Positions 10,823 to 61,095 of a DNA stretch of 64,000 bases are shown piece by piece. The translations under genes were made by a program, and so were the position numbers. Positions within the stretch are counted from its first letter, which is position 1; every line of letters starts with the position of its first letter. The notes beneath the pieces were generated by a model. That model saw nothing but the letters and a program-made list of their open reading frames with translations. It did no database searches and was not told the DNA's origin. Origin of the DNA: Burkholderiales bacterium (GTDB lineage Bacteria; Patescibacteriota; Minisyncoccia; Phycocordibacterales; UBA9973); the NCBI GenBank assembly GCA_023701005.1, contig JAMPXW010000001.1, forward strand, positions 207,843-271,842, given 5' to 3'.

Positions 10823-11220
10823 GGGGATGTCAGGCATAGACGAAAGGCCTAATGTCTAAGATGCATGTCGAGTACGGACGTAATCTCGTAAAAATTCGTT
10901 CAAATGTTAATTGCAAAATTGACTTCTAAAGCTAAAGAATTAGCTTCTCCATACTTCGGTATGAAGGACTTTTCTTTCGCTCCAGCTTTCGCGTAAGCCA
11001 AGGTTGGTGTCTTACTTATAGACTTCCGATATATAAGATAAGGCATAATATTATCGGGATAGGGAAGAAGGAGCTTCGACTTTTTCTAGAAAAACAAAGA
11101 AGATCGATTAAGAATATTTCATTCGCTTAAGAATTTTTAATCTAAAACAAAAAGCGTTTTACACATGTAGACTTCTTTACAGAAACCTTTTGCACCGGGG
11201 TTCAATTCCCCGCATCTCCA
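10823..11220 (+). ncRNA. ssrA: tmRNA (SsrA), about 398 nt, directly downstream of smpB
   Basis: 5' GGGGATG pairs with 3' CATCTCC plus discriminator A. The 3' T-arm is CGGGGTTCAATTCCCCG. The tRNA-like 5' element TAGACGAAAGG is present. An internal tag frame beginning near 10931 encodes ...AKELASPYFGMKDFSFAPAFA and stops at TAA 10994-10996. Confidence 0.7.
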
Positions 11221-11320
11221 CAAAAATAAAAAATATAATGATTATATTTTTGTAGGACCCCGACGGAGGAGGGGTGTAAGAATTTTAATTTTTAGGTTTT
11301 TTGTGCTATGATACTGAATC

Positions 11321-19824: not shown

Positions 19825-20265
19825 GTGGAATTAAAAGAAATAAAATCTTCGGATATAAAATTATTAAATAAAGCTACTGATTTGATTTCTAAATATTCGT
19901 GGGGGCATGATTACCCCGTAAGACCCATTGATGAGATTTTGAGAGCAGATTATCGAATTGGAGCGATGATTGCTGATGAACTTGTGGGTTTTGGGACAGT
20001 TGGTTTTGGTTTTGGTCCTGATAAATTAGACAATGATCAATTATGGATTGCTCACGCAGTAGTTCTTCCTAAATTTCGCCAGCAGGGTATTTTTAGAGAA
20101 ATTTTTAATGCACAGTTATCTTATGCCAAGAATAAAAATAAGCGTATAATGACTTGCACAGACAATCAAATAATAATTAATTTTTTATTAAAAAATGGCT
20201 GGAAAGAATTACGACAAACCATAGATGAATCAGGCAAAGCTTCTAAGGTTTTTGAATATAAATAA
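19825..20265 (+). CDS. GNAT-family N-acetyltransferase
   Basis: Acetyl-CoA binding motif A region RQQGIFREIFNAQLSYAK. Confidence 0.7.
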   Translation: MELKEIKSSDIKLLNKATDLISKYSWGHDYPVRPIDEILRADYRIGAMIADELVGFGTVGFGFGPDKLDNDQLWIAHAVVLPKFRQQGIFREIFNAQLSYAKNKNKRIMTCTDNQIIINFLLKNGWKELRQTIDESGKASKVFEYK

Positions 20266-36563: not shown

Positions 36564-37109
36564 ATGAAGAATTTATCAAAAAGTTTCAAGCAAGGTTCCG
36601 CCTCGGCTTGCCGAAGACGAGACGGGTTTACGTTAATTGAATTGTTGGTTGTTGTTGCAATCATCGGTATTTTGGCATCAGTTGTTTTGGCATCATTAAA
36701 TAGTGCTAGAACAAAAGGAGCAGATGCTGCTATCAAATCTAATTTAGCAAATATGCGTGCGCAAAGTGAAATTTTGTATGACAAGAATGGGAGGTATGAT
36801 ATAGATACGACGGCGACAACAGTTGCGGCTGCTGCATGTACAAATACAGCCAATAGTCTTTTTGCTGATCCAACTATATGGGGTCAAGTTAACAGTGCTT
36901 TGTCTTCTTCTGGTGGTTTGGATTCATGTATGGTTGGGCCATCAGCGGATTCATGGGCAGTCGTAGTGCAAATGAAACAAAATCCAAATACGGAAGCATG
37001 GTGTGTAGATAGCTCTGGTGCTTCAAAAAAAGAAACTCTTGATGGTTCTCCCATTCAAACTGAATTAAATGCTCTTGTTACTGATGGAATAATAGCTAAG
37101 TGTGATTAA
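36564..37109 (+). CDS. Type IV pilin paralog 2 with an extended 21-aa leader carrying a 10-codon GC-rich insert (SASACRRRDG)
   Basis: MKNLSKSFKQG-SASACRRRDG-FTLIELLVVVAIIG. Identical to paralog 3 except for the 30-nt insertion ttccgcctcggcttgccgaagacgagacgg. Confidence 0.7.
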   Translation: MKNLSKSFKQGSASACRRRDGFTLIELLVVVAIIGILASVVLASLNSARTKGADAAIKSNLANMRAQSEILYDKNGRYDIDTTATTVAAAACTNTANSLFADPTIWGQVNSALSSSGGLDSCMVGPSADSWAVVVQMKQNPNTEAWCVDSSGASKKETLDGSPIQTELNALVTDGIIAKCD

Positions 37110-40224: not shown

Positions 40225-42769
<2,545 letters not shown>

Positions 42770-43416: not shown

Positions 43417-44220
43417 GTGAAAAAGATAATCAAGAAAATAATCCTGTTAAACAAAAAAGAAGGGGAGACTCCTTTAGAAGCTTTAGAGAATTTTCGTGAT
43501 AAAAATCCTCAATATTTAAGTGTGCCTATGACTTATGCTGGAAGGTTAGATCCTATGGCCAGTGGGGTTCTTTTGATATTAGCTGGAGAAGAAACAAAAA
43601 ATAAGGAGAAATATTTGAACAAAGATAAAGAATATGAATTTGAAGTTTTGTTTGGTTTTAGTACTGATACTTTTGATATTTTAGGAAAAATTTCCGCTAG
43701 GCAAGACCTAGCGGAGAGCAAAGAAGTAAATGTAAAAGAATTAGAGAAAGAGATAAAAAAGAATATAAAAAATTTTGTTGGTGAAAGTATACAAAAATAT
43801 CCGATGTATTCTTCTAAAACAGTAAAAGGTAAACCATTATTTATGTATGCTAGAAATGGAGAAGATGTGGAGATCCCAGAGAGAAAGATTTTTATATATA
43901 AACTAAAATTAGAAAAAATAAGAATGATCGATAATAAAAAATTATTTAAAAATATAGAAAAAAGAATAAAAAAAGTTAAAGGGCCCGCCTCGACTCGCGG
44001 AGAGTCGACGCGAGGCGGGGATTTTAGGCAAAAAGAAATTTTAAAGATATGGGAAAATAATTTGAAGTTTAAAGATTTTAGATTTAAAAAGTTTTATATA
44101 GCTAAATTGAAAGTTAAATGTAGTAGTGGTACATATGTTAGGAATATTGCATATTCTTTGGGTAAAAAGTTAAATATTCCATCTTTGGCTTTTTCAATAA
44201 AAAGAACGAAAATATGTTAA
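43417..44220 (+). CDS. truB: tRNA pseudouridine synthase (TruB-like) carrying an in-frame 12-aa GC-rich insert (PASTRGESTRGG)
   Basis: Catalytic motif AGRLDPMASGVLLILAG (the pseudouridine-synthase catalytic Asp). Confidence 0.7.
   Translation: MKKIIKKIILLNKKEGETPLEALENFRDKNPQYLSVPMTYAGRLDPMASGVLLILAGEETKNKEKYLNKDKEYEFEVLFGFSTDTFDILGKISARQDLAESKEVNVKELEKEIKKNIKNFVGESIQKYPMYSSKTVKGKPLFMYARNGEDVEIPERKIFIYKLKLEKIRMIDNKKLFKNIEKRIKKVKGPASTRGESTRGGDFRQKEILKIWENNLKFKDFRFKKFYIAKLKVKCSSGTYVRNIAYSLGKKLNIPSLAFSIKRTKIC
43981..44020. repeat. 40-nt GC-rich imperfect palindrome (gggcccgcctcgactcgcggagagtcgacgcgaggcgggg) lying in-frame inside truB
   Basis: cccgcctcg pairs with cgaggcggg; inner cgactc pairs with gagtcg. 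About 80% GC in an AT-rich gene. Confidence 0.7.
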
Positions 44221-44853: not shown

Positions 44854-47802
44854 ATGTCGGCTGAAGCTTTCGAACAAGAATATAAGAAGCTTAATAAGGC
44901 TCAAAAAGAGGCTGTCGATAATATTGATGGCCCTGTGATGGTTGTAGCAGGCCCTGGAACAGGCAAAACTCAAATTTTAGCATTAAGAATAGGTAATATT
45001 TTGAAAAATACTGACGTAGGAGCAGATAGTATTTTGTGTTTAACTTTTACGAATTCGGCAGTGCATGCCATGAGAGATAGGTTGTATAAATATATAGGCA
45101 ATACAGCTTCGAAAGTTCAAGTCTTAACATTTCATAAATTTTCAGCAGAAATAATTGAGGAATTTTATTCAGTAATTGGCTTTGATACATTGCCAAGAAT
45201 TTTGGAAGACACAGAAGGTATATCGATCTGTGATCAGATTTTAAGAGAGAATGATTGGAAATATCTTCGTCCAAGAAATGATGTCGGTAGATATTTTAAA
45301 GAATTAAAATCTTTAATATCTTTATTAAAGAGAGAAAGAATGACACCAGAAGAATTCTTAAAAGAAATTGAGAATGAAATTTTAGATATCAAAAAAAGCC
45401 CAGGCAGTATTTCTACAAGAGGTGAGAGTAAGGGGAAGATGAAAAAAGAATTTTTAACTAAGATTGAAAGTCTGGAACGAACGAAAGAGACTGTTTTATT
45501 TTATGAATTATATGAAAAGAAAAAAAGAGAAGATTATCTTTTAGATTATGATGATAGTATCAAATACGCTTTAGAAATAATAGAAAATAGCGAGGAGGCC
45601 AGAGCTAGTATTTGCGAAAAATACTTGTATGTTTTGATTGATGAACATCAAGATTCTAGTGGTGTTCAAAATGATTTATTGAAAGCTATTTGGCAAAAAG
45701 AAGAAAAACCAAATATTTTTGCAGTGGGGGATGATCGCCAGCTGATATATGCTTTTGGTGGTGCAAAGATGTCACATTTTGAAGAATTTAAGACGATGTT
45801 TGGTAAAACAAAAATCATCTTTTTGACAGACAATTACAGGTCAACGCAAAACATTTTAAATACAGCGGATTCATTGCTCTCAAGTTCTTTTTCAGAAGAG
45901 AAACTTTTAGCCACAATAAAAGATAGTCATAATCTTAGATTAGTCGAAGCTGATTATCCACGAGATGAAATATTGGCTTGTGGTATAGAGATAAAAGATA
46001 AATTAAAAAATAATAAAATAGATTTAAATAGCTGTGCGGTACTTGTCCCCAAGAATAGACAAGTAATATCAGCTATAAAGATTTTAAAAGATTTAGGAAT
46101 AAAGGTTTCATCAATGCAAAACTTATCTTTATTTGATACTGATGAATTCGAAACCATATTAAGGATTTTAAAAATTTGCATAAATAGTCATGATGCATCT
46201 TCTTTATCTCTTAGTATTCTTGATCCAGTTGCCAAGATTCCTGTATTGTCCGCTCATGAATATTTGCATAGCAAACATGGCAAAGATATTAATTTGAAAG
46301 ATATTTTATTTGAACAGAATGATCTTTTTGGTAAATATGGTGAGATAAAAGCTTGGGCAGACAAATTAAAAGATCTAGTTTCTGCTTCTGTTAATTTAGA
46401 TATTTATAGTTTGGTACAAACAATAGGAGATGAAGTTTTAATAAAAACGGCAACAAATCATGATGAGCTTATTCGTAGAATAGAAGTGATAAGAAGTATG
46501 CTTCATTTAGCTTTATCATTTTCAGAAAAAAATAAAAAAGGGAATAAAGATTCATTGGTTGAATATATATCGTTTATAGAAAGATTGCGTATTTATGGTG
46601 AGGATGTACCACTTTCTTTGTTTGAGGGTGATGAAGGAGTAAAGGTCATGACACTTCATGCTTCTAAAGGTCTAGAGTTTGATTTTGTTTGGATCGCTCA
46701 CATGGACGAGAATGGATTAATGAAAGGCAAGCGTAGAAATTTTAAATTGCCAGAGTCTGTAGCTATGAAGATAGAAGAAAAAGACGAACTAGGGGCAAAG
46801 AGAGAGCTTTATGTAGCGATAACTAGAGCAAAAAGATTTTGTAATATATCATATTCAAGATTTTCTTATACTGGACAAAATCAAGAATTAGCTAAAATCA
46901 TATCTGATTTATTAATCTCAACCGAGAATGTTTTTGAAAAATCTTTAGCCAAAGATACCGAGAATAAACTCTTAGAGCATGACCCAAAAGTTTATGTAGC
47001 TTCTAGCCAAGTTAAAGATGAAATGAATGTTTTAGAAAAATTGATAAAGATAGTTTCAAAACAGTATGTAGATATTAATGTTTCTGTTTCAATGCTCAAT
47101 AACTTTTTTGAATGCCCACGTAAATGGTATTTTAGAAATTTATTAAAGTTACCGGAGCCTAAGAGTGAAAGTTTGGAATTTGGTAATGCTGTGCATGGAG
47201 CTATAGATAAAATATTGAAATTAAAAGATATTCCTACAAAAAAGGAAATAGAAAAGATTGTTGATGGAGATAAAGAAGTGATGAGAATAGTCACCAAGTG
47301 GGTAGAAGATAGATTGCCTAATATAAGTAAAAAAAGAGAAAACGAAAAAAGTATTTCTGTCCACTATAAAGAATTTTCATATTTAAATATTTACGGCAAG
47401 ATAGATTTGATAGAAGAATTAGAAAATAATATTTTGCGTGTTGTTGATTTTAAGACCGGCAATCCTCGCAAAAAGAATGACATAGAAAAGATGGATGAAG
47501 AGGGAAGGATGAGTGATTATATGAGGCAACTTTCCATGTATTCTTTTCTCTTGCAAGAGAGTAGAAAACAAATAAATGTTAAAGAATCTTGTTTGGAATT
47601 TTTGGAAGCTAAAGATAAAAAAGAAAGCATTTATACAACTTGTATAGATCAAGAAAAAGTAAAACTTTTAATTAAGGATATTAAAGATTATGACGATTTG
47701 GTAAAGACTGGAGGATGGATAGATAGACCATGTAATTTTAATTCTTATGGCAAAGCAAACGTTGAATGTCAGTACTGCAAGATGGCAGAGATTTACAAAT
47801 AA
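44854..47802 (+). CDS. UvrD/PcrA-family helicase fused to a C-terminal PD-(D/E)XK (Cas4/AddB-like) nuclease domain with a Cys cluster
   Basis: Walker A GPGTGKTQIL, helicase motifs (LIDEHQD, YRST, VMTLHASKGLEFD, ELYVAITRAK). The C-terminus has CPRKWYF...DFKTG...YSFLL and C-x-C-x2-C, consistent with an Fe-S RecB-type nuclease. Confidence 0.7.
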   Translation: MSAEAFEQEYKKLNKAQKEAVDNIDGPVMVVAGPGTGKTQILALRIGNILKNTDVGADSILCLTFTNSAVHAMRDRLYKYIGNTASKVQVLTFHKFSAEIIEEFYSVIGFDTLPRILEDTEGISICDQILRENDWKYLRPRNDVGRYFKELKSLISLLKRERMTPEEFLKEIENEILDIKKSPGSISTRGESKGKMKKEFLTKIESLERTKETVLFYELYEKKKREDYLLDYDDSIKYALEIIENSEEARASICEKYLYVLIDEHQDSSGVQNDLLKAIWQKEEKPNIFAVGDDRQLIYAFGGAKMSHFEEFKTMFGKTKIIFLTDNYRSTQNILNTADSLLSSSFSEEKLLATIKDSHNLRLVEADYPRDEILACGIEIKDKLKNNKIDLNSCAVLVPKNRQVISAIKILKDLGIKVSSMQNLSLFDTDEFETILRILKICINSHDASSLSLSILDPVAKIPVLSAHEYLHSKHGKDINLKDILFEQNDLFGKYGEIKAWADKLKDLVSASVNLDIYSLVQTIGDEVLIKTATNHDELIRRIEVIRSMLHLALSFSEKNKKGNKDSLVEYISFIERLRIYGEDVPLSLFEGDEGVKVMTLHASKGLEFDFVWIAHMDENGLMKGKRRNFKLPESVAMKIEEKDELGAKRELYVAITRAKRFCNISYSRFSYTGQNQELAKIISDLLISTENVFEKSLAKDTENKLLEHDPKVYVASSQVKDEMNVLEKLIKIVSKQYVDINVSVSMLNNFFECPRKWYFRNLLKLPEPKSESLEFGNAVHGAIDKILKLKDIPTKKEIEKIVDGDKEVMRIVTKWVEDRLPNISKKRENEKSISVHYKEFSYLNIYGKIDLIEELENNILRVVDFKTGNPRKKNDIEKMDEEGRMSDYMRQLSMYSFLLQESRKQINVKESCLEFLEAKDKKESIYTTCIDQEKVKLLIKDIKDYDDLVKTGGWIDRPCNFNSYGKANVECQYCKMAEIYK

Positions 47803-47917
47803 TTAGAATTTTGGGCCGTTATCTAACCAGCCGAAATAGAAACCTAATATTAGTAGAATTATGATTAATATGGCTAAAATCCAATGTTTTTTTAGCATAT
47901 TAATAGTATAGCAAATA

Positions 47918-48664
47918 TTGGGAAAAAGTTCTTTTTGTGATATATTTTCATTAATGGATAAAGAGACAAAAAAAGGAAAAGAACACCCGCTTTCTTTGGT
48001 TGTAAATGAAGCAGTAAAGATTTTTACTGATTTGGGTTTTGAGGTGGCTACTGGTCCAGAGCTAGAAGATGAATGGCATAATTTTGACGCTCTAAATTTC
48101 CCGAAAGATCATCCTGCTCGTGACATGCAAGATACTTTTTTTATTAAAAACAAGCCAGGATATGTATTACGTACTCATACATCAAATACACAAATTCATT
48201 TTATGGAAAAATTTGTTAAAGATGGTAAAAATCCACCATTCGCGATAATCGTTCCTGGAAAAGTTTTCAGAAATGAAGCAACGGATTCAGGGCATGAAAT
48301 GCAATTTTATCAACTTGAAGGCTTAATGATAGGTGCTAACATAAGCGTAGCTCACATGAAAGGAATTTTACTTGAATTCTTTAAAAGGTTTTTAGGAAAA
48401 GATGTAGAAATCAGATTACGTCCTAGTTTCTTTCCTTTTGTTGAGCCGGGATTTGAAGTAGATGTAAAACATGGAGACAAATGGATGGAGCTCTTGGGCG
48501 CTGGTATGGTTCATCCAAAAGTTTTAGAAAATTGTGGCATTGATTCTAAAAATTATCAAGGTTTTGCTTTTGGTTTTGGTCTTGATCGTATGGCAATGAT
48601 AAAATTTGGAATTCCAGATATTCGTCTTTTTTATCAAGGAGATTTAAGATTCAATCAATTTTAA
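47918..48664 (+). CDS. pheS: Phenylalanine-tRNA ligase alpha subunit (catalytic core only, 248 aa)
   Basis: Class II aaRS motifs: FPKDHPARDMQDTFF (motif 1), FRNE (motif 2), GFAFGFGLDRMAM (motif 3). Confidence 0.85.
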   Translation: MGKSSFCDIFSLMDKETKKGKEHPLSLVVNEAVKIFTDLGFEVATGPELEDEWHNFDALNFPKDHPARDMQDTFFIKNKPGYVLRTHTSNTQIHFMEKFVKDGKNPPFAIIVPGKVFRNEATDSGHEMQFYQLEGLMIGANISVAHMKGILLEFFKRFLGKDVEIRLRPSFFPFVEPGFEVDVKHGDKWMELLGAGMVHPKVLENCGIDSKNYQGFAFGFGLDRMAMIKFGIPDIRLFYQGDLRFNQF

Positions 48665-48668
48665 TTTT

Positions 48669-50504
48669 ATGAAAATTTCTTATAATTGGCTTAAGTGGTA
48701 TATTCCAGATGTTCCTAAACCAGAAGAATTAGTAAATCTTTTTACTTTTCATGTTTGTGAAGTTGAAAGTTTTGACAAAACGGCGGATGGTGATTTTATT
48801 TTTGATATAAAAATTTTACCAGATAGAGCACATGATTTACTCAGTCATTTTGGAGTGGCTCGGGAGATCTCTTCTTTACTTGATATTCAATTTATTGATC
48901 CAATTTTGAAGTATAAAAATCCACCATCAAAAGAGACTCAATTAATTATAGATGTTCAGTCTGAAAAATGTCGTCGCTATGTAGGTAGAATCGTTCGAAA
49001 TATAAAAATAGGTCCTAGTCCAGATTGGGTAGTAAAACATTTAGAATCAATAGGACAAAGAAGTATTAATAACATGGTAGATGCAGCTAATTTGGTAATG
49101 TATAATTGTGGACAACCCACGCATGTTTTTGATTTAAATAAGATGAATCAAGGTCTAATAGTAAGACAAGCAGAAGATGGTGAAGATATTACAACGTTAG
49201 ACAATAAAGAATTAAAACTAAAAACTTCAGATCTAGTAATTGCAGATTATTCTAAAGCTCTTGCTATTGCTGGTATAAAAGGAGGGAAGATAGCAGAGGT
49301 TGATAGTGAAACCACAGATGTTGTTTTAGAGGTTGCTAATTTTGATCCTACTTCTGTACGTAAAACTGCCCAAGCTTTAAATATTTTTACGGACGCAAAA
49401 AAACGTTTTGAGAATGATTTATCTCCAGAGTTATGTGATCGTGCTATGTTAGAATTTTCTGCTTTGATTTTAGAAATGTGTCCGGAGGCATCCTTTGAAG
49501 ATATTGTAGATATTTATCCAAAAAAACAAGAAATTAGAGAAGTATCTTTTAGTCTGAGAAAAATATCAAAAATTTTAGGTGTAGAAGTTTCTTTAGAAGA
49601 GATAAAAGATATTTTGCGAAGATATAATTTTGAATATATAGAAGATGGTGAGTTTATAAAAATAAAAATACCATTCATGCGATTTGATCTGAACATAGAA
49701 GAAGACATAGCAGAAGAAATAGGCAGAATAATGGGGTATGATAAAGTAAAGCCAAAAATTCCTGAAATAAAATTTACACCCAAGAGTAATACAATATATG
49801 AGAAGATTGTTTTTGTTAGGAATAAATTTTTGAATGATGGATATTCAGAAGTTATGACTTATGTATTTAGAGATAAAGGAGAAGTGGAAGTCCTTGCTTC
49901 TGCTTCAGATAAAAAGTTTTTAAGAACTAATCTCACTGACGGGCTTAAAGAGAGTTTAAAATTAAACCAACTTAATTCTCCCTTGCTTGAAATGAGTGAA
50001 ATAAAAATTTTTGAAATCGGAACTGTCTTTAAGAAAACTGGTGAAGAAATGCATGTTGCTTATGCAGATAAAAAAGAAATAAAAGAAATGAAATTAGAAG
50101 AATTTTGTTTTAATTCTCCTCTTGAGGAGTACCCAAAGGGGGAGGTGAAGTATTTCCACCCCGGCACAAGTGCCACCCCTCAAGAGGGGAATAAATTTAA
50201 ACCTTGGTCAATATATCCTTTCATCTCTCGTGATGTAGCTGTTTGGGTACCTGAGAGAGAAGATCCTTTAATATTAAAAAAATTGCTTATAGATAATGCC
50301 ACAGATCTTTTGATAAAAGAACCTTATTTGTTTGATTCATTTACAAAACCTGCCTCGACGCAAGGCGAGGATGGAAAAACTTCTTATGCTTTTAGGCTTG
50401 TTTTTCAGTCGTATGAAAGAACTTTAAAAGATGAAGAAATAAATGAAATTATGACTAATATAACCAATAAAATCAAGGAGAAAAATGATTGGCAGGTTAG
50501 GTAA
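48669..50504 (+). CDS. pheT: Phenylalanine-tRNA ligase beta subunit (short form), with two GC-rich palindromic patches lying in-frame within it
   Basis: B3/B4 domain (NNMVDAANLVMYNCGQPTHVFD), B5 domain and a C-terminal FDX-ACB-like domain; 611 aa. Confidence 0.85.
   Translation: MKISYNWLKWYIPDVPKPEELVNLFTFHVCEVESFDKTADGDFIFDIKILPDRAHDLLSHFGVAREISSLLDIQFIDPILKYKNPPSKETQLIIDVQSEKCRRYVGRIVRNIKIGPSPDWVVKHLESIGQRSINNMVDAANLVMYNCGQPTHVFDLNKMNQGLIVRQAEDGEDITTLDNKELKLKTSDLVIADYSKALAIAGIKGGKIAEVDSETTDVVLEVANFDPTSVRKTAQALNIFTDAKKRFENDLSPELCDRAMLEFSALILEMCPEASFEDIVDIYPKKQEIREVSFSLRKISKILGVEVSLEEIKDILRRYNFEYIEDGEFIKIKIPFMRFDLNIEEDIAEEIGRIMGYDKVKPKIPEIKFTPKSNTIYEKIVFVRNKFLNDGYSEVMTYVFRDKGEVEVLASASDKKFLRTNLTDGLKESLKLNQLNSPLLEMSEIKIFEIGTVFKKTGEEMHVAYADKKEIKEMKLEEFCFNSPLEEYPKGEVKYFHPGTSATPQEGNKFKPWSIYPFISRDVAVWVPEREDPLILKKLLIDNATDLLIKEPYLFDSFTKPASTQGEDGKTSYAFRLVFQSYERTLKDEEINEIMTNITNKIKEKNDWQVR
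50116..50189. repeat. GC-rich cluster of four short hairpins/palindromes inside pheT (ctcctcttgaggag ... ggtgaagtatttccacc ... ggcacaagtgcc ... cccctcaagagggg). The outer pair forms a 10-bp inverted repeat
   Basis: Read directly from sequence. Encodes ...EEYPKGEVKYFHPGTSATPQEGNK.... Confidence 0.55.
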
Positions 50505-50519
50505 TTTCTGATATAATTA

Positions 50520-52601
50520 TTGTATATGGCAAAAGAAAAAGAACAAGAAAAAGGTGCCGGGAAAGGGCATCATTATGATGCTAGTGATATTTCTGTTTTG
50601 GAAGGTCTTGATCCAGTACGTCGTCGTCCTGGAATGTATATTGGTACTACAGGCATAGATGGTTTGCATCATTTGATTTGGGAAATTTTTGATAACTCTC
50701 GTGATGAAGCGATGGGAGGTTTTTGTAATAATATAGAGATTGTTCTTTTGCCTCAAAATCGTATTCGTGTAGCTGACAATGGTAGAGGTATCCCCGTTGA
50801 TATTCATAAAAAAACAAAAGTGTCTGCATTGGAAACAGTTATGACAACTCTTCATGCAGGAGGTAAATTCGGAGGAGAAGGATATAAAGTTTCTGGAGGT
50901 TTGCATGGAGTAGGTGCTTCTGTAGTTAATGCACTTTCTATTTATTGTAAAGCAGAAGTTCATAAAGATGGTGGTAAATATCTTCAAGAATATTCTCAAG
51001 GTAAAAAGAAATCTGCTGTAAAGAAAGTTTCTTCTTCAAAGTTAAATGGAACTATTATAACTTTTCAACCAGATGAAGAAATATTTAAAGATATTAAATT
51101 TGACTTGAACACTGTAGTGAGTCATATTCGTCAGCAAGCTTATTTAGTGAAAGGGCTAAAGATTTTGATAATAGATGCTAGGGGATACGAAGGCAAGATA
51201 GATGATTCAGATATTTTTTATTTTAAAGAATTAGGATTAGAACTTCCTTCTACTTCTTTTTATTTTGAAGGAGGATTAACTTCTCTTGTTAAATATTACA
51301 ATAAATTCCAGAAGCCTTTACATAGCAGTATTTTTTACATTGAAAAAGAAGTTGATGGTGTTGGAGTTGAAATAGCTCTCCAATATGTTGATGATATCGT
51401 GGATAGAATAATTCCTTTTGCAAACAACATATACACTCCAGAAGGAGGCACACATGTCACAGGATTCAAGACGACTCTCACTCGTACTTTGAATACATAC
51501 TGTAAGAAGAATGAAATGATGAAAGAGTCTGAAGGAGGTTTTACTGGAGACGATGTTTTGGAAGGTTTGACTTGTGTTATTTCTGTTAAACTTCGTGAGA
51601 TACAATTTGAGGGACAAACTAAAGCAAAACTAGGTTCTGTAGAAGCACAAGGTGCTGTGGGAACTGTGTTTGGGGAAGCTTTTGCTGCGTTTTTAGAAGA
51701 AAATCCAGATGAAGCAAAAGCTATAATTAACAAGTCTATTTTAGCGTTAAAAGCTCGTAAGGCAGCTAAGGCAGCCAAGGATTCAGTTCTTCGCAAGGGT
51801 GCTCTTGAAGGCATGACTCTTCCAGGTAAATTAGCTGATTGTCAAAGTAAGAGTGCAGAAGAATCAGAATTGTTTTTGGTGGAGGGAGACTCTGCGGGTG
51901 GTTCCGCTAAACAAGGGAGAGACAGACGTACACAAGCCATACTTCCACTTCGTGGAAAGATTCTGAATGTTGAACGTGCTCGTATCGATAAAATGCTTGC
52001 TTCTAAAGAAGTGAGAGCTCTCGTCATAGCTATGGGTACTTCTATCGGAGATACTTTCGATTTAGAAAAGATGCGATATCATAAAATAATTATTGCGACA
52101 GATGCCGATGTCGATGGAGCTCACATACGTACTCTTCTTTTGACTCTTTTCTATAGATATTTTAGACAAGTAGTAGATGCTGGATATATTTATATTGCTC
52201 AACCACCACTTTATAAAATAAAAAGAGGTAAAGAAATAAATTATGCATATTCAGATGAAGAAAAAATAAAAATAATCGGCAAAGATACAGATGTAAGCGA
52301 GATAGAAGCAGTCGAAGATTCTGCTAATGTTGAAAATGAAGAAGAAGCAGAAGATTCTGAAGCAGAAACAAAAAAGAAAATGAATAAAGTGCATATTCAG
52401 CGTTACAAAGGTCTCGGAGAAATGAATCCAGAAGAACTTTGGGAAACGACGATGGATCCAGCTAAAAGAGTTTTAAAGAAAGTAAATATAGAAGATGCAG
52501 AAGAGGCAAATAAAGTTTTTGAAATTCTCATGGGCTCTGAGGTTCCTCCTAGAAAATCTTTCATTCAATCAAATGCAAAATTAGCAGAAATTGATATCTA
52601 A
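50520..52601 (+). CDS. gyrB: DNA gyrase subunit B
   Basis: GHKL ATPase motifs (EIFDNSRDEA, GLHGVGASVVNA), Toprim EGDSAGGSAKQGRDR, and the C-terminal PLRGKILNVE region. Confidence 0.9.
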   Translation: MYMAKEKEQEKGAGKGHHYDASDISVLEGLDPVRRRPGMYIGTTGIDGLHHLIWEIFDNSRDEAMGGFCNNIEIVLLPQNRIRVADNGRGIPVDIHKKTKVSALETVMTTLHAGGKFGGEGYKVSGGLHGVGASVVNALSIYCKAEVHKDGGKYLQEYSQGKKKSAVKKVSSSKLNGTIITFQPDEEIFKDIKFDLNTVVSHIRQQAYLVKGLKILIIDARGYEGKIDDSDIFYFKELGLELPSTSFYFEGGLTSLVKYYNKFQKPLHSSIFYIEKEVDGVGVEIALQYVDDIVDRIIPFANNIYTPEGGTHVTGFKTTLTRTLNTYCKKNEMMKESEGGFTGDDVLEGLTCVISVKLREIQFEGQTKAKLGSVEAQGAVGTVFGEAFAAFLEENPDEAKAIINKSILALKARKAAKAAKDSVLRKGALEGMTLPGKLADCQSKSAEESELFLVEGDSAGGSAKQGRDRRTQAILPLRGKILNVERARIDKMLASKEVRALVIAMGTSIGDTFDLEKMRYHKIIIATDADVDGAHIRTLLLTLFYRYFRQVVDAGYIYIAQPPLYKIKRGKEINYAYSDEEKIKIIGKDTDVSEIEAVEDSANVENEEEAEDSEAETKKKMNKVHIQRYKGLGEMNPEELWETTMDPAKRVLKKVNIEDAEEANKVFEILMGSEVPPRKSFIQSNAKLAEIDI

Positions 52602-53043
52602 TAAATTTATGAGTGAAGGATTGCAAAAATTAGATAAATCACAAATTGAAAAAGGGTTTGAAGCCTTGACTAATAAATTTACTGATATATTTAATAGACC
52701 ACTACCCGATGACCCTGAAAAAAGAAAAATTGTTATTTCGCTTGATAAAGCTTTTGAAGACTTTTTACAATATAAAATTAGTGAACACATAGGAGAAGTT
52801 TTAGATATACCCGATGAGGTTATTTTCAATATCATTGGAAATGCTTTTTCTATTAAACCTTGTGAATCTTTTAAAGAAGTTTTTTCGGTTCTTAGATTAG
52901 GGGCATATGGTGAAATAGGAGATAGCTATAAAGATGGTGATATTGAAAGAATTGGAAAAGATAAATGGAAAATAAGAGATATAAATGTTTTTAAAAAATT
53001 AGAAAAAGCATTAAAAAACAGCTACATAGAAGCAACACGTTAA
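52591..53043 (+). CDS. Hypothetical protein (overlaps the gyrB stop codon; probable start is MSEGLQKL at 52609)
   Basis: 150-aa ORF with no recognised family. Confidence 0.35.
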   Translation: MISNKFMSEGLQKLDKSQIEKGFEALTNKFTDIFNRPLPDDPEKRKIVISLDKAFEDFLQYKISEHIGEVLDIPDEVIFNIIGNAFSIKPCESFKEVFSVLRLGAYGEIGDSYKDGDIERIGKDKWKIRDINVFKKLEKALKNSYIEATR

Positions 53044-53082
53044 TTTTTTTAATTACAGAAGCCTTGATTTATGAGTTAACAT

Positions 53083-53385
53083 ATGTTAACCTATATATAT
53101 ATGTCTAAAAATAAAGATATTTTAGTGAAAAAGACAAAAAACTATTATTCTACACCAGAAGTAGCCAAGCTTCTTGGGGTCTCTCGTGTAGCCATTTTTA
53201 AGAAAATTAGAAATGGACAAATACATGCTGAAAAAATTGGCAGAAACTATATTATTCCAAGAGAAGAATATGAAACTATTGTGGGTCTTTTTGTGCCAGA
53301 ATATAGAAAAAGAGATATAGAAAATACAGTTGATCGTGTAGTCAAAAAATATGGTTCAGTATTGCGTAAACTTGGGAAAGAATAA
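53083..53385 (+). CDS. Excisionase/MerR-type HTH DNA-binding protein; candidate antitoxin for the downstream Doc/Fic gene
   Basis: PEVAKLLGVSRVAIFKKIRNGQIHAEKIGRNYIIPREE is a winged-HTH of the excisionase family. Confidence 0.5.
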   Translation: MLTYIYMSKNKDILVKKTKNYYSTPEVAKLLGVSRVAIFKKIRNGQIHAEKIGRNYIIPREEYETIVGLFVPEYRKRDIENTVDRVVKKYGSVLRKLGKE

Positions 53386-53390
53386 ATTTT

Positions 53391-53834
53391 ATGGCGCGGA
53401 AAATAATCAAACGCATAAAATTAGCAGATGTAGAATATATTGCTTTTCAATTAGCAAAAAAATTTTTAGAATGGGATGAACCAATTCCAGATTTTGATAC
53501 TCGTTTTCCAGATAAATTAGAAAGTTGTATTGAAACACCATTTCAAACGTTTGATAAAAAAAGTTTATATAAAGGTCTTGTAGAAAAATCGGCAATACTT
53601 TTTTATTTAATGAATAAAAATCATCCATTCCAAAATGGAAATAAAAGAATCGCAGTCACCACTTTGATGTTTTTTCTGATAGAAAATAGTAAATGGCTTT
53701 CAGTTTCTAATCACGATTTTTATGAATTTGCTCGTGAGGTCGCAGGAAGTAGAGCAGAAGATAAGGATGATATTATGATAATCATACGTTCATTTATTAA
53801 AGAAAACCTTGAAGAATTTGACTCAGCAAAATAA
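53391..53834 (+). CDS. Fic/Doc-family protein (Doc-like toxin)
   Basis: HPFQNGNKRIAVTTLMFFL matches the Fic/Doc core motif HxFx(D/N)(G/A)NKR; 147 aa, Doc-sized. Confidence 0.65.
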   Translation: MARKIIKRIKLADVEYIAFQLAKKFLEWDEPIPDFDTRFPDKLESCIETPFQTFDKKSLYKGLVEKSAILFYLMNKNHPFQNGNKRIAVTTLMFFLIENSKWLSVSNHDFYEFAREVAGSRAEDKDDIMIIIRSFIKENLEEFDSAK

Positions 53835-53839
53835 TATTT

Positions 53840-54298
53840 ATGGAAATAAGCGAAATTACAAAACAATATTGGACGAAAGAAGATTGGGAAAATCTAGAAA
53901 AAGTAGAATCAGCAGGTGATTTATATATTATTGCTCAAGATGTTATTTCTCGTATGCCAAAGCCCTTTGTGCAAGTTTGTGGTCCTATTGCTACAGGGGG
54001 ATTAGGTTCTTTGGATGCAAATTTGAATCTTTTTAATGAAACTATAAAAGAGTTACAAAATGAAGGATTGAGTGTTTTTGATCAAATGCCATTTGAAGAT
54101 TCAATGCAAAGATTAAAGAAGAAAATCACTTCTAAAAGTGAAGTGGTGACAACTATTTTGACAGATTTTTATTATCCAATTTTTGAGTCTGGATTAATTT
54201 CCGCGTTTTATTTTATTCCTGGATGGGAGACATCTTTTGGAGCAAAATGCGAACATGAAAAAGCAAAAGAGCTTGGCATAAAAATAGTTTATTTGTAG
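53840..54298 (+). CDS. Hypothetical protein, possibly a nucleoside 2-deoxyribosyltransferase-like/DUF4406-type fold
   Basis: VQVCGPIATGG...LSVFDQMP pattern. Weak assignment. Confidence 0.3.
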   Translation: MEISEITKQYWTKEDWENLEKVESAGDLYIIAQDVISRMPKPFVQVCGPIATGGLGSLDANLNLFNETIKELQNEGLSVFDQMPFEDSMQRLKKKITSKSEVVTTILTDFYYPIFESGLISAFYFIPGWETSFGAKCEHEKAKELGIKIVYL

Positions 54299-54299
54299 A

Positions 54300-56051
54300 T
54301 TATTTCTTTTCTTTTATCTCTTCTGTGAGTTTTGAGAGAAGTTCTTCTTTTGTCATTTGACCAAGTGGCCCAGCATCACGAGATTCTATAGTGACTTTAT
54401 TTGCTTCTATTTCCTTGTCACCAATTACTATCCAATAAGGTATTTTGTTATTTTTTGCATCGCGTACTTTTCCTCCGAGATTTGATTCTTCGTCATCTAG
54501 CTCTACGCGGATGTTATTTTCTTTTAATAAATTATAAACTTCTTTTGCATATTCGTTATGATTGGTCCTTACAGGGATTATTTTAACTTGAACTGGAGAA
54601 AGCCAAAGAGGGAATACACCAGCATAATGTTCTATCATCACACCCATAAATCTTTCGAATGATCCAAATATTGCAACATGGAGAACTACTACTCGATGTT
54701 TTTTTCCATCTTCTCCGGTGTAATTCATATCAAAATTTTCTGGTTGATTAAAATCAAGTTGTATTGTGGTAAGTTGCCATTGTCTACCTATAGAATCTTT
54801 TACTTTTATATCTATTTTAGGACCATAAAAAGCTGCTTCTCCTTCTTCGACACTATATTGAAGGTTCATTTTTTTTGCAGATTGGATCAATATGTTTTCA
54901 GCTTTTTCCCATACTTCATCGCTTCCAAAATATTTTTTCTTATTTTTTGGATCTCTGATAGAAATTTCAATTTTGTAATCTTTAAAATTAAATATTTTGT
55001 AAACTTTTTGCATTAACTCAAAAATCATTTCTATTTCAGATTCAATTTGGTCGGTTCTTATAAAATGATGTGTATCATCTTGGGTTAAATTTTTTACACG
55101 TAAAAGACCAGAAAGCTCACCACTCTTTTCATTACGATATACTGTTGTATTCTCTGCGATACGTAGAGGTAAATCACGGTAACTGTGTGGTTCAGCATTA
55201 TATATTTCAAAATGATGAGGACAATTCATTGCTTTCATGACGAATTCTTCGCCGTTTTCATCTGTCATCGTTGGCATCATTGCATCATATTTACCCATAT
55301 GTCCACTTCTTATATAAAGTTCCTTTTTTGCTATGTGTGGTATCGTGACAAAAGAATACCCTAAATTTTCTTTCTCTTTTCTTATAAAGTTTTCTAGTTG
55401 AGTTCTTATGATATTGCCTTTAGGTAAATACATTGGTAATCCTTTGCCTACTAGCTCAGAGATTGTGAATAATCCCATTTCTTTTCCAATTTTTTTGTGG
55501 TCTCTTTTTAATGCTTCTTCTCTTTGTAATAAATATGTATCGAGTTCTTCTTTTGTTTCAAATGCTAAGCCATATATACGTGTGAGCATTTTATTTTTTT
55601 CATCTCCACGCCAATATGCCCCAGCGACACGATCGAGTTTGAAAGAAAGGGGATCAATGTTTAAAGCAGGATTTTCTAAATGCCCTCCTCGACATAAATC
55701 AGTAAAACCTCCACAAGTATATGTAGTTATTTTTTCTCCACGATCTGCTATTTCATTAATGAGTTCTATCTTATATTCATTTTTGAATAAATTCAAAGCA
55801 TCTTCTTTATTTAGTTCTTTTTGTTCCCATTCCGTCCATTTTGGAAGTTCTTTTCGCATTGTGTCTTCAATCTTTTTAAGATCGCTATCAGATATTTTTT
55901 CATCTCCGAAATCTATATCATAATAGAATCCATTTTCAACAGAAGGCCCTAATGTTAGTTTGATTTTATCAAACTTATATATTTTACCTACTGCGGCTGC
56001 TAATAAGTGAGCCAATGTATGTCTTAAATTATGCAATTTATCGTTTTCCAT
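54300..56051 (-). CDS. thrS: Threonine-tRNA ligase (lacks the N-terminal TGS/editing domains)
   Basis: Class II motifs (YRDLPLRIAENTTVYRNEKSGELSGLLRVKNLTQDDTHHF), zinc-ligand residues and the anticodon-binding domain. Confidence 0.9.
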   Translation of the reverse strand: MENDKLHNLRHTLAHLLAAAVGKIYKFDKIKLTLGPSVENGFYYDIDFGDEKISDSDLKKIEDTMRKELPKWTEWEQKELNKEDALNLFKNEYKIELINEIADRGEKITTYTCGGFTDLCRGGHLENPALNIDPLSFKLDRVAGAYWRGDEKNKMLTRIYGLAFETKEELDTYLLQREEALKRDHKKIGKEMGLFTISELVGKGLPMYLPKGNIIRTQLENFIRKEKENLGYSFVTIPHIAKKELYIRSGHMGKYDAMMPTMTDENGEEFVMKAMNCPHHFEIYNAEPHSYRDLPLRIAENTTVYRNEKSGELSGLLRVKNLTQDDTHHFIRTDQIESEIEMIFELMQKVYKIFNFKDYKIEISIRDPKNKKKYFGSDEVWEKAENILIQSAKKMNLQYSVEEGEAAFYGPKIDIKVKDSIGRQWQLTTIQLDFNQPENFDMNYTGEDGKKHRVVVLHVAIFGSFERFMGVMIEHYAGVFPLWLSPVQVKIIPVRTNHNEYAKEVYNLLKENNIRVELDDEESNLGGKVRDAKNNKIPYWIVIGDKEIEANKVTIESRDAGPLGQMTKEELLSKLTEEIKEKK

Positions 56052-56059
56052 ATTTTTAT

Positions 56060-56275
56060 ATATTATTAATAAAATTAAAATCGCCCCGACAAAAATGAAA
56101 AAGTCTCATTTTTGTCGGGGCGAGTCTAGTTCGCGGTTCCACCCAACTTTGTTCTTTTTGTTTATAGATTAGCCTTTACGGTCCTATTTTTATAGGATTA
56201 TGGTTGGTAGCCATAACAATCTCTATTCCCCTAAGAATATCATTTTTTTGATAAAAGTACAATAATTTTGCATTT
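56060..56275 (-). promoter_or_regulatory. T-box riboswitch leader for thrS (minus strand)
   Basis: The minus strand carries the T-box consensus GGGTGGAACCGCG (plus-strand 56132-56144). It is followed by a 16-bp terminator hairpin (plus 56082-56122) and a U-run, then thrS. An upstream stem I region carries a candidate ACC (Thr) specifier in ggctACCaacc. Confidence 0.55.
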
Positions 56276-56305
56276 CTTATGGAATATGCTACTATAGGTT
56301 ACATT

Positions 56306-56530
56306 ATGGTAGTACGAATGAGACATACAAAATCACATACGAAAAACCGACGTTCTCACCACGCATTGGAGAGTACGAGTTTTGCTAAATGTGAAAATTG
56401 TAAGAGTTTAAAGCGACGTCATACGGTTTGTTCCTCTTGTGGATTTTATCGTGGGATGAAAGTTTTAGATTTAGTAAAAAAGATAGAAAAGAAGCAAAAG
56501 AAAGAAAAGGCGGCTCAAGCAAAGAGCTAG
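56306..56530 (+). CDS. rpmF: 50S ribosomal protein L32
   Basis: RHTKSHTKNRRSHHAL ... CENCKSLKRRHTVCSSCGFYRG is the L32 zinc-ribbon. The ORF-track start at 56279 is probably too early. Confidence 0.8.
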   Translation: MVVRMRHTKSHTKNRRSHHALESTSFAKCENCKSLKRRHTVCSSCGFYRGMKVLDLVKKIEKKQKKEKAAQAKS

Positions 56531-56613
56531 TTTATAAAGTAGAAAGTAGAAAGTGAAAAGTAATTCATTTTTTCTAACTTTATAGACTTTAAGAACTTTA
56601 TAACTTTACACTT

Positions 56614-57585
56614 ATGGCTAACAGGCACCTTTCAAGATCAATAGTACTTCAGACACTTTTCGAGTGGGATTTTATGTCTGCCACAGAAAAATCTAGCGCC
56701 TGGGACGATAAAAAAATAAAAGAAGCTTTAAATAGAAATCTTAAGGAGTTTGCTCCTGGACTTGAGGATGATGTTTTTGTCATTTCTTTAGTTGATTCGA
56801 TTTTAAAAAAATGTGATGTTATTGACGAGATAATAACAAAAGCAGCTCCAGATTGGCCTTTAGATAAAATATCAGTTGTTGATAGAAATATATTGAGAAT
56901 TGGCTTATCAGAGCTTTTGTTTGGAGATAGAAATGAAGTTCCTCCTAAGGTTGCTATCAATGAAGCCATCGAATTGGCAAAAACTTTTGGTGGTGAAAAT
57001 TCTGGTAAATTTGTAAATGGAGTTCTCGGTGCTGTATATAAAGAAATAGGAGAGCCAGGTAAAGAACAAGTAAGTAAAAAAAAGAAAGAAGAAGAGCCTC
57101 TAGATATTACAAAACTTCCAGTAGAAAAATTAGGTGGTGCTTTGATTTATGCAAAGAAACCAGCCTCGACTAGTACGAGTCTAGGCGGGGGGAATAATAT
57201 TTTATTTGCATTAGTTCATGATGTGTTTGGATATTGGACTTTATCAAAAGGAAAGATAGGAGATACAGAAGAAACAAAAGGAGAAACTACAGAAGAAGGA
57301 ACAATAAGAAAAATAAAAGAAGAAATTGGTTTGGATATAACAATAAAAGAAAAGATAGGAGAAAATGAATATGTTGCTACTCATCCAGAAAAAGGGAAGA
57401 CTTTGAAAAAGGTGACATATTTCTTGGCAGAAAGTGAATATAGAGAAATTCAATTGGGAGAATCTGGTGGTTTGGATAATGCAAAATGGTTTCAACTTTC
57501 TGAGATTCCAGAACTTCGTATTTACAATGATATTATTCCACTTGTCACAAAGGCCATAGAAATATTGAGCAAAAAAGAAATTTAG
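56614..57585 (+). CDS. nusB: NusB antitermination factor fused to a C-terminal NUDIX hydrolase domain, with an in-frame GC-rich insert ([11 protein letters not shown]) in the NUDIX domain
   Basis: N-terminus [20 protein letters not shown]...[26 protein letters not shown] is NusB. C-terminus [28 protein letters not shown] is a Nudix box. Confidence 0.7.
57160..57192. repeat. GC-rich GCCTCGAC-family element in-frame inside the nusB-NUDIX gene (ccagcctcgactagtacgagtctaggcgggggg)
   Basis: Shares the 5' core cc-n-gcctcgac with the truB and pheT copies. Confidence 0.6.
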
Positions 57586-57611
57586 ATTATAAAGTTTAAT
57601 ACATAAAGAAA

Positions 57612-58307
57612 ATGATACAGTTTTCAGATTTTGAAAAAAATACAAAAATAGTTTTTAAAGATAAGAATTTATTAAAACAAGCTTTCATTCATCGATCATA
57701 CATCAATGAGAATGCAGGTTCTTTTTTGTCACACAATGAACGTTTAGAATTTTTAGGGGATGCTGTATTGGAATTAGTCGTGACAGATTTTTTATATAAA
57801 AAATATCCAAATTACACAGAAGGAGAATTGACAGCTATTAGATCTGCTTTAGTAAATGCAATAATAATTTCAGAAGTTGCTTTGAAGGTAGGAATGAATG
57901 ATTATTTGCTTTTATCTAAAGGTGAATCGAAAGATAATGGTAAAGCAAGACAATATATTTTGGCAAATACATATGAAGCTTTTGTCGGAGCTGTTTATCT
58001 AGATCAAGGATATGATGTTGTGAATAAATTTATAACCACTAGTCTATTGCCACATACAGACGAGATAGTCTCCAAAAAGCTTTGGCGAGATGCAAAGAGT
58101 CTAGTTCAAGAAAAAGCTCAGGAATTTGTACAAGTTACTCCTTTATATAAAGTTTTGCATGAATCAGGCCCTGACCATGACAAACATTTTACTGTCGGTA
58201 TCTTTTTTGGACAGAGCTTGATAGCTGAAGGAAAAGGTAAATCTAAACAAGAAGCAGAACAGAAAGCAGCAGAAATGGCATTAAAAATAAAAAATTGGAT
58301 GGAATAA
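57612..58307 (+). CDS. rnc: Ribonuclease III
   Basis: RNase III signature ERLEFLGDAVLELVVTDFLY plus a C-terminal dsRBD. Confidence 0.9.
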   Translation: MIQFSDFEKNTKIVFKDKNLLKQAFIHRSYINENAGSFLSHNERLEFLGDAVLELVVTDFLYKKYPNYTEGELTAIRSALVNAIIISEVALKVGMNDYLLLSKGESKDNGKARQYILANTYEAFVGAVYLDQGYDVVNKFITTSLLPHTDEIVSKKLWRDAKSLVQEKAQEFVQVTPLYKVLHESGPDHDKHFTVGIFFGQSLIAEGKGKSKQEAEQKAAEMALKIKNWME

Positions 58308-58310
58308 AAT

Positions 58311-60548: not shown

Positions 60549-60582
60549 TAAATTTGACTTTCTTTGTCAAGAGATGTAATCT

Positions 60583-60612
60583 AAAAACTAGTTAAATAAA
60601 CTAGTTTTTTTA
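60583..60612 (+). terminator. Rho-independent terminator after smc
   Basis: aaaactagttaaataaactagtttt followed by tttt. Confidence 0.6.
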
Positions 60613-60627
60613 CAAATTAAAAATCAA

Positions 60628-61038
60628 ATGAGGTGCCTCATGGAAATTAATTCAGCGAGAATTCTCGTAGTAGATGATGTTGCAGCTTGCACTGCAATCA
60701 TCATGAAAATTTTAAAAGAAAATTCTTTTAAAAATGTTATATCCGCTTCTAATGGTGTAGATGCTATTAGCTTATGTGCTAATTCTGAGTTTGATTTAGT
60801 ACTAATTGGTCCAGGACGTTCGGTATTAAATAGTTTTGAAACCATCGGCACGATAAGAGACATACCAATACCTCTTTTTAAAAAAATCCCTATCATTGCG
60901 ATGATAAAAGATGAAAAAGATTCAAAAGAAGAAGTTTTATTTGCAGGAGCAACAGACGTTATTTTAAAGCCTATAAAAAAAGAAGATCTTGTAGGCATAT
61001 TAAAAAAATATTTAGAAAAGGAACCTAAGGAAGATTAA
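60628..61038 (+). CDS. Orphan single-domain response regulator (CheY-like receiver)
   Basis: ILVVDDVAACTAIIMKILKE...DLVLIG...K receiver pattern. Confidence 0.65.
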   Translation: MRCLMEINSARILVVDDVAACTAIIMKILKENSFKNVISASNGVDAISLCANSEFDLVLIGPGRSVLNSFETIGTIRDIPIPLFKKIPIIAMIKDEKDSKEEVLFAGATDVILKPIKKEDLVGILKKYLEKEPKED

Positions 61039-61039
61039 C

Positions 61040-61095
61040 TTGGCTCGGTGTGTTTTATGACGCACCGAGCCTTTTTTATTTAAATTTTAATTTTT
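61040..61095. repeat. Left copy of a 56-bp direct repeat; it contains a terminator hairpin (ggctcggtgtgttttatgacgcaccgagcc plus T-run). The right copy is 62065..62120, with 42 nt identical and then 2 mismatches
   Basis: Direct comparison of the two copies in the sequence. Confidence 0.85.

Follow-up and report, generated by a model that had tools for sequence, protein, structure and literature searches.

We analyzed a 64,000-nucleotide stretch of contig JAMPXW010000001.1 (positions 207,843 to 271,842; hereafter the window), which has a composition of 32.3% GC and carries bacterial housekeeping genes, a transfer-messenger RNA (tmRNA) and a type IV pilus cluster with PilM/O/B/T/C, pilin and prepilin-peptidase genes. 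Three of its protein-coding genes, truB, pheT and one encoding a NusB-NUDIX fusion, contain short GC-rich palindromes that add residues to the protein without breaking the frame, and these elements are the subject of this work. An earlier note, made from the letters of this DNA alone, had described them at 43981-44020 (truB), 50349-50374 (pheT, encoding PASTQGEDG) and 57160-57192 (NusB-NUDIX) as a family sharing the core GCCTCGAC; all three sequences and their peptides were recovered exactly at these positions and in these frames. A fourth copy, which the note had not listed as a member, sits in the leader of a type IV prepilin encoded within the pilus cluster, directly ahead of its cleavage motif, G|FTLIELL, and a fifth lies in the RNase R gene of the same genome, beyond the window end. 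The RNase R and Nudix copies are identical at 28 of 30 bases and have the 5′ flank AAGAAA in common. All five copies lie within open reading frames (ORFs) and in frame (Table 1).

The best homologs of both TruB and the NusB-Nudix protein come from metagenome-assembled genomes of Candidatus Paceibacterota/Nomurabacteria, within the candidate phyla radiation (CPR, or Patescibacteria), and the window belongs to a Paceibacteria genome of 32% GC. An identical NusB-Nudix protein, P0121, is encoded on an NCBI contig labeled “Burkholderiales bacterium”; all homologs are from Paceibacteria, and the label is probably a binning error or a mislabeled record. Over 14.4 kb (window 46674-61069), the sequence is matched at 100% identity by an independent Logan assembly, and the elements are therefore not assembly artifacts.

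The GCCTCGAC core occurs three times in the window, always on the + strand, against 0.28 expected, and none of 100 shuffles reached three copies. GCCTCG is present in 12 copies versus 4.95 expected (shuffle maximum, 10) and GGCGGGG in three copies only. The 8-9-mers GTCGGAGC (six copies) and CACCGAGCC (four copies) are also over-represented in the window relative to its base composition. Nine 24-nt stretches of at least 70% GC are found in the window, the truB patch being one of them; GC islands at 10784-10815 and 11251-11278, which directly flank the tmRNA gene (10823-11223, adjoining smpB at 10280-10726), were not taken as elements.

We folded the elements as single-stranded DNA and compared them with shuffled sequences, expressing the difference as a z-score. 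The self-complementarity described before was borne out, with a strong stem in truB and hairpins in pheT and Nudix that are weaker yet non-random, while the pilin-leader hairpin is weak. Two further sites, a palindrome at 636-690 and a motif at 5120-5135, had been put forward as related: both contain GCCTCG, as claimed, but their membership is not shown, since the first folds no better than shuffles (z = -0.6) and the second forms no hairpin. A candidate at 7227-7267 was likewise rejected because it is not a hairpin.

The elements start with CCNGCC, finish with GGCNGG and are 18-42 nt long, always in multiples of three (6-14 residues); their interiors are variable, and the short elements contain no copy of their own flanks. 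Their codon usage departs sharply from that of the window genes: the Pro, Ala, Ser, Thr, Arg and Gly codons inside the elements end in G or C in 18 of 26 cases (69%), compared to 17.8% in window genes (p = 1e-8), and rare codons recur: there are four instances of TCG, which makes up 3% of Ser codons, and three of GCC, which makes up 10% of Ala codons. Translational bypassing of the kind known from the byp elements of Magnusiomyces was considered and rejected, given that all inserts are multiples of three and without stop codons.

The extra residues had been predicted to be insertions, and this is what comparison with orthologs showed. Among truB sequences they are missing from 77 of the 80 that represent species and from 101 of the 120 homologs, and they are likewise missing from all 21 pheT orthologs and from ∼100 of 120 Nudix homologs; no counterparts of the same residues written in AT-rich codons were seen in unrelated lineages. 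The truB insertion adds 13 residues after KKVK and ahead of GDFRQ. Of the relatives with DNA, L087 is the closest: its truB is ∼92% identical (counted from the DNA alignment), and synteny extends over 9.5 kb at 78% identity. L087 has the empty site AAAGTAAAA|GGTGAT, and the two sequences differ there by a clean indel with no mismatch cluster around the insert. The 21 pheT orthologs read FTK|DGKTSY, with empty-site DNA available from L002, L004 and L090, and the pheT element is inserted exactly between AAA and GATGG. L087 itself holds a diverged orthologous copy at this position, CCTGCCTTGATGGCAGGCGGG; the pheT insert therefore predates the split between the window and L087. The pheS gene differs from that of L087 by an indel in the opposite direction: at its N terminus, L087 carries an 18-nt GC-rich insert of its own, GGTTTACCCGCCGTGGAG (L087 4481-4498), after an A-run, and the window (47975) is empty.

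At the Nudix site, homologs without the insert read YAKK|G(N/K)D. The close relatives L081 and L083 have different, partly AT-decayed inserts at this site, and the Nudix homolog P0180 has one resembling the type B element of truB described below. The pilin-leader insert is absent from a paralog at 37128 (MKNLSKSFKRG|FTLIELL) and from orthologs in L011, L042 and L027, and the RNase R ortholog of L081 shows the empty site AAGAAA|GATGG. Surface loops had been expected to host the inserts, and the AlphaFold models available for TruB and NusB-Nudix agree, placing them in loops of low confidence. In TruB (mean predicted local distance difference test [pLDDT] score of 86), insert residues 190-201 lie between helices 173-186 and 205-216 with a pLDDT of <50; in NusB-Nudix, strands 170-181 and 196-202 are joined by a turn that holds insert residues 183-192, with a pLDDT of <50 at residues 186-193. 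The inserts are thus predicted to form disordered loops or turns at tolerated positions.

Filled and empty sites could be compared base by base. The junctions are unambiguous for pheT (AAA^GATGG), RNase R (AAA^GATGG), the helicase copy of a relative described below (TTA^GATGC) and a second pheT site (AAA^AAT), while the truB junction can be read as either GGN^GAT or AAA^GGN. Where the junction is unambiguous, no target-site duplication is present. AAA directly precedes the element on its 5′ side at 8 of 9 sites, compared to a background of 5.8% (p = 1e-9, a post hoc count). Where the junction can be placed, insertion is after AAA and usually directly ahead of GAT. The window contains more than 200 AAAGAT sites, and occupancy is therefore far from saturated.

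The truB site has a history of its own. It is filled at exactly the same position in 19 of the 120 TruB homologs, by inserts of subtype A (GPASTR...), subtype B (GPARNAK...) or a few other variants. On a single-gene neighbor-joining tree, calculated with the insert columns left out and without support values, the carriers are scattered, with at least 13 state changes, type A being found in at least four places and type B in at least seven, and for two carriers, the window and P0005, the nearest relatives (distance, ∼0.1) have an empty site. Between carriers whose proteins are 58-75% identical, third-codon identity reaches 92-100% inside the insert versus 41-53% outside it, and the arms of the window insert are identical to those of the truB inserts in L044, L086 and L128. 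Every version forms a hairpin (-10 to -14 kcal/mol), and the consensus hairpin has six pairs with compensatory changes between subtypes. Two type B carriers with TruB proteins only 62% identical come from the same metagenome sample. The site carries what looks like the signature of recurrent invasion. Mimicry of a tRNA T-arm for TruB autoregulation was also considered and rejected, as no TTCRA loop is present and the family occurs in other genes as well.

Recurrence of the same element types in other genes and genomes, which the insertion hypothesis called for, was indeed found. In L084, a UvrD-like helicase has an insert in its PD-(D/E)XK hairpin that agrees with the pheT element at 19 of 21 positions and that occurs in none of more than 30 orthologs aligned across the site, that of the window included. 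The pilin-leader element matches a copy in a pilin-like gene of L084 at 28 of 30 nucleotides, and this gene and the window pilin show elsewhere only 48% identity over 70 residues. L090 carries a type A element, PTSTRGDSSTRGG, at the second pheT site in addition to one in truB, and the type B peptide PA(H/R)NAK appears in truB and Nudix homologs alike. In 865 kb from low-GC relatives, CCNGCC(6-36)GGCNGG, the palindromic arrangement, was found 25 times and the direct and everted control arrangements 3, 3 and 14 times; the 25 matches lie mostly within ORFs and are read in several frames, those in other frames giving LPRLGKAG, SRLDSARLA and TCPPAGR. In relatives, helicase, pheS-like and dnaG-like genes serve as in-frame hosts. 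Copies that can be oriented mostly have the same sense relative to the gene, including two oppositely oriented neighbors in L084. In L084, the C terminus of the prepilin peptidase (3548-3595) also contains a tandem duplication of a 24-nt element, CCCGCCTAGACTCGGCGAGGCTGG, which resembles the 5′ arm of type A and is read as SRLDSARLARLDSARLA.

A covariance model built from the truB hairpins gave a significant score for the truB copy alone (pheT, E = 5.9; Nudix missed), because the interiors of the family are too varied. A metagenome scan with AGGCGGGGATTTYAGRCA, which encodes GGDFRQ, returned 120 matches, of which only 9 were truB; GGDFRQ is also a conserved motif of another protein, found in the context HTEGGDFRQATYRAVRQG, which we take to be EF-G/TetM-like. 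Four element patterns had no match among viral contigs, and nothing therefore points to a phage vector.

A second, longer family of palindromes is represented in the window by an in-frame hairpin in the zinc-finger loop of ligA, a kindred phenomenon and not a member of the GCCTCGAC-core family. The ligA loop is 24-33 amino acids (aa) long in nine relatives and 37 aa in the window, where the 27-position Pfam zinc-binding domain profile spans 39 residues; in L042, L030, L084 and L024 it reaches 51-60 aa and its hairpins fold at -22 to -36 kcal/mol. The 60-100-nt hairpins of relatives have a common core, GGTCCTCGGTTCTCC...GGCCAGACC, which is also found in the pheT linker of other genomes, and long inverted arms that differ by site. 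These site-specific arms suggest growth by fold-back copying. At least two families of in-frame palindromes therefore occur in Paceibacteria. The pheT linker is variable and holds GC-rich inserts in several lineages; in the window (50127-50182) it has ∼26 nt not found in L087, with a small palindrome, GGCACAAGTGCC, inside TCCACCCCGGCACAAGTGCCACCCC.

Table 1. Palindromic elements, their host genes and related hairpins, with folding energies as single-stranded DNA and z-scores against shuffled sequences. Coordinates are those of the window unless a genome is named.
Feature	Coordinates	Strand	Description	Energy (kcal/mol)	z-score
truB element, “type A-long”	43981..44019	+	39-nt in-frame insertion, +13 aa, encodes GPASTRGESTRG(G); 9-bp GC stem	-14.1	-3.0
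truB palindrome core	43984-44019	+	CCCGCCTCG...CGAGGCGGG		
pheT element	50349..50369	+	21-nt in-frame insertion, +7 aa (PASTQGE), FDX-ACB domain, CCTGCCTCGACGCAAGGCGAG	-6.6	-3.0
NusB-Nudix element	57160..57189	+	30-nt in-frame insertion, +10 aa, Nudix half, CCAGCCTCGACTAGTACGAGTCTAGGCGGG	-6.9	-2.4
Pilin-leader element (fourth window copy)	36597..36626	+	30-nt in-frame insertion, GSASACRRRD, TCCGCCTCGGCTTGCCGAAGACGAGACGGG; hairpin CCGCCTCG...CGAGACGG, weak	-8.4	-1.4
RNase R element (fifth copy)	L209 2376-2405		∼2.6 kb past window end, CCAGCCTCGACTAGCGCGAGTCTAGGCGGG		
truB	43417..44220	+	tRNA pseudouridine-55 synthase, GTG start; Pfam TruB_N, E = 7e-35		
pheT	48669..50504	+	phenylalanyl-tRNA synthetase beta chain; Pfam B3_4, B5, FDX-ACB		
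NusB-NUDIX fusion	56614..57585	+	Pfam NusB, NUDIX		
Type IV pilin	36564..37109	+	N-terminal methylation motif; Pfam N_methyl		
ligA zinc-finger loop hairpin	41985..42035	+	in-frame 51 nt, 19-bp stem, one mismatch	-14.1	
ligA	40709-42769				
Long-family locus	L084 ∼7384-7483				
Long-family locus	L024 ∼2520-2650				
Long-family locus	L042 ∼8340-8460				
Long-family locus	L013 ∼10030-10130				
Long-family locus	L015 ∼20050-20170				

Other features of the window deserve mention. Compared with L087, the window has an extra 1,239 nt (52601-53840) separating gyrB from a DUF4406 gene. This insertion contains an ORF without assignment, an HTH_17 (excisionase-like) protein and a Fic/DOC protein, and is probably a small mobile or toxin-antitoxin-like module. 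On the - strand (8895-10206), phosphoglucomutase is split into two overlapping ORFs, with domain I at 9790-10206 and domains II-IV at 8895-9803, which is a frameshift, a pseudogene or a split gene. A small protein at 61162-61548 matches PaaX_M and Cas2-like domains; similar PaaX_M proteins occur in the same neighborhood of relatives, and neither a CRISPR array nor a further cas gene was noticed around it. A 926-aa protein (1527-4307) shows weak matches to TraG/TrwB, a type IV coupling protein, and to HerA-like proteins, with no other conjugation genes in view.

Taken together, it is likely that these sequences are members of a family of miniature palindromic DNA elements, rich in GC and with terminal inverted repeats CCNGCC...GGCNGG, that has spread within and between AT-rich Paceibacteria genomes. 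Our best reading is that of a selfish, site-preferring palindromic mini-element, and we infer its selfish character from the clean in-frame loop insertions, the near-identical copies in unrelated genes, the patchy occupation of sites, the conservation above that of the host gene and the decay of some copies. Older copies decay toward AT. New sites would be reached by hairpin-dependent insertion that leaves no duplication, for which a single-strand HUH/IS200-RAYT-like enzyme (RAYT, repetitive extragenic palindrome-associated tyrosine transposase) or repair and template switching are candidate agents. Movement between lineages at the same site may proceed by homologous recombination through the conserved coding flanks, and the type IV pilus cluster makes DNA uptake plausible. 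In such gene-dense genomes, only in-frame copies in tolerant loops would survive, and these would then be translated as short loops rich in Pro, Ala, Ser, Arg and Gly.

Several observations weigh against this reading. The copy number is modest, at five in about 67 kb, and no transposase, integrase or HUH enzyme was found when the ∼56 ORFs of the 64-kb window were scanned against Pfam. No foreign recombination tract is visible around the truB insert in the comparison with L087. The state changes at the truB site were counted on a single-gene tree that lacks support values. A truB copy is more similar to the truB copies of other genomes than to the remaining copies of its own genome, a pattern that descent or recombination at the site would explain more readily than repeated new transposition. 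Lastly, the strong conservation of the stems and their compensatory changes could mean a selected function, and since the stems are more conserved than synonymous sites, a functional reading is also allowed.

A bolder version of the mobile-element reading can be offered only tentatively, and we are inclined to doubt it. It holds that the elements represent an undescribed class of bacterial mobile DNA, non-coding hairpins of 21-42 nt that would be the smallest known, with an AAA^GAT target and no duplication, re-invading the same conserved positions in essential genes across a phylum. This would amount to homing without an endonuclease gene, in which the proteome is forced to carry the elements as loops, and the drive could come from an unrecognized single-strand DNA enzyme or from transformation together with biased gene conversion.

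It is unlikely that the hairpins are instead functional nucleic-acid structures under selection, inherited vertically and lost repeatedly without being mobile, for instance an mRNA structure acting with rare codons to pause the ribosome between folding units, or a protein-binding site. The near-invariant third positions of the truB insert would fit such a function, as would the six compensatory stem pairs, in which T-G positions would pair as U-G in RNA, the bias of orientable copies toward the same sense and the clustering of rare codons. However, the elements are absent from the nearest relatives of their carriers and from more than 80% of homologs, the same element is found in unrelated genes and even in a leader peptide that is cleaved off, and AT-rich decayed remnants persist in the close relatives L083 and L081. 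An Rfam scan of the window matched only one tmRNA and three tRNAs, and none of the elements matched a family at the gathering score. Conserved stems are moreover compatible with mobility, being present also in the GC42 element of yeast, which is regarded as mobile (PMC4478555).

The possibility that each palindrome arose on the spot, through template switching or fold-back synthesis during replication or repair, seems more remote still. It would account for the missing target-site duplication and for the longer family in ligA and the pheT linker, where a conserved core is joined to site-specific inverted arms, and template switching may contribute to the growth of that family. The matches of 19/21, 28/30 and 28/30 between non-homologous genes, two of them involving different genomes, cannot be independent, however, and the short elements are built without a copy of their flanks.

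As an alternative, the earlier note had considered a DNA uptake sequence recognized by the competence pilus and enriched by preferential uptake. The type IV pilus cluster of the window is indeed complete, conservation of the arms across lineages is high, and filled alleles could plausibly spread by transformation, but the density is too low to sustain this explanation, which we regard as highly improbable: GCCTCGAC and GGCGGGG each occur three times in 64 kb, no GC-rich 8-10-mer exceeds seven copies there, GCCTCGAC is not enriched across 1.2 Mb of relatives, and the elements are discrete insertions with variable interiors. Equally hard to credit is a protein-level origin, with adaptive loop insertions whose palindromy is incidental; the hydrophilic peptides, their position in loops and the prevalence of the frame CCN-GCC-TCG (Pro-Ala-Ser) are in its favor, but the codons are among the rarest of the genome, synonymous positions are invariant, other copies are read in other frames and one sits in a leader peptide.

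If the elements are mobile, as we think likely, the consequences reach beyond this genome. CPR genomes are tiny, gene dense and thought to be streamlined, and selfish DNA could persist there by hiding in protein loops. The inserts explain lineage-specific loop insertions in CPR protein alignments and could serve as fine-scale strain markers. With exact filled and empty junctions and recurrent sites at hand, the insertion mechanism becomes directly testable in existing metagenomes.

The literature, searched in full text, yielded no account of elements of this kind from CPR, Patescibacteria or Parcubacteria. We compared them with systems known from elsewhere. DNA uptake sequences of Neisseria and uptake signal sequences of Pasteurellaceae are also short conserved motifs that occur inside genes, in bacteria capable of natural transformation, and may spread by biased uptake. 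They consist of a single motif of 9-12 nt, and in Neisseria and Haemophilus they number ∼1 per kb; the density of our elements is more than 10-fold lower, and these are discrete palindromic insertions with variable interiors. Miniature inverted-repeat transposable elements share the terminal inverted repeats, but the elements described here lack a duplication, have no parent insertion sequence that we could find and fall below the usual 50-500 bp. The repetitive extragenic palindromes (REPs) and bacterial interspersed mosaic elements associated with RAYTs are closer in form, being GC-rich imperfect hairpins of 20-40 bp that, like our elements, show no target-site duplication. Enzymes of the IS200/IS605 family insert next to a short specific sequence. 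In contrast to our elements, which are intragenic with the ends CCNGCC and GGCNGG, REPs are extragenic and have a conserved GTAG or CGTC tetranucleotide (PMC3733652). No RAYT-like gene was found among the window ORFs.

The earlier note had likened the elements to Rickettsia palindromic elements (RPEs), and for their behavior the comparison is apt: in both cases palindromic repeats lie in frame in unrelated housekeeping genes and are translated as an extra peptide compatible with the fold, and the host of RPEs likewise has a reduced, AT-rich genome. Identity with RPEs is another matter. RPEs are ∼100-150 bp long and encode a conserved peptide of 30-50 residues (PMC10969869). The present elements measure 18-42 bp (6-14 residues), are read in more than one frame and belong to a different phylum. 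To our knowledge, the recurrent occupation of the same site in distant lineages by near-identical sequences is not a described feature of RPEs. What is new here is the behavior of GC clusters and RPEs in a phylum for which it had not been described, by elements smaller than RPEs that make no duplication and re-occupy conserved sites in essential genes.

The closest behavioral counterpart is the GC clusters of mitochondria, closer than RPEs, even though the elements belong to neither group; we compared them with GC42 of Saccharomyces cerevisiae, the in-frame clusters of var1 and the double-hairpin elements of Allomyces. GC42 is a 42-nt GC-rich hairpin whose stems change below the synonymous rate, whose units have common termini and turn over rapidly, and which occupies sites patchily and is transferred between species by recombination in conserved flanks (PMC4478555), and the in-frame GC clusters of var1 spread by gene conversion (PMC8811140). 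Both groups consist of GC-rich hairpins of 20-50 nt dispersed in an AT-rich genome and present or absent among close relatives, with common termini, different interiors, stems conserved above synonymous sites and in-frame copies, and the commonest length of 42 nt matches that of truB copies. They differ in that GC clusters are organellar, whereas the present elements reside in a free bacterial CPR genome and have no sequence similarity to them, and in that GC clusters are mostly intergenic with AG or TAG/ACT flanks read as target duplications, whereas our elements are mostly coding and show no duplication. The family would thus provide a bacterial counterpart both to the long-unexplained GC clusters of mitochondria and to the RPEs of Rickettsia.

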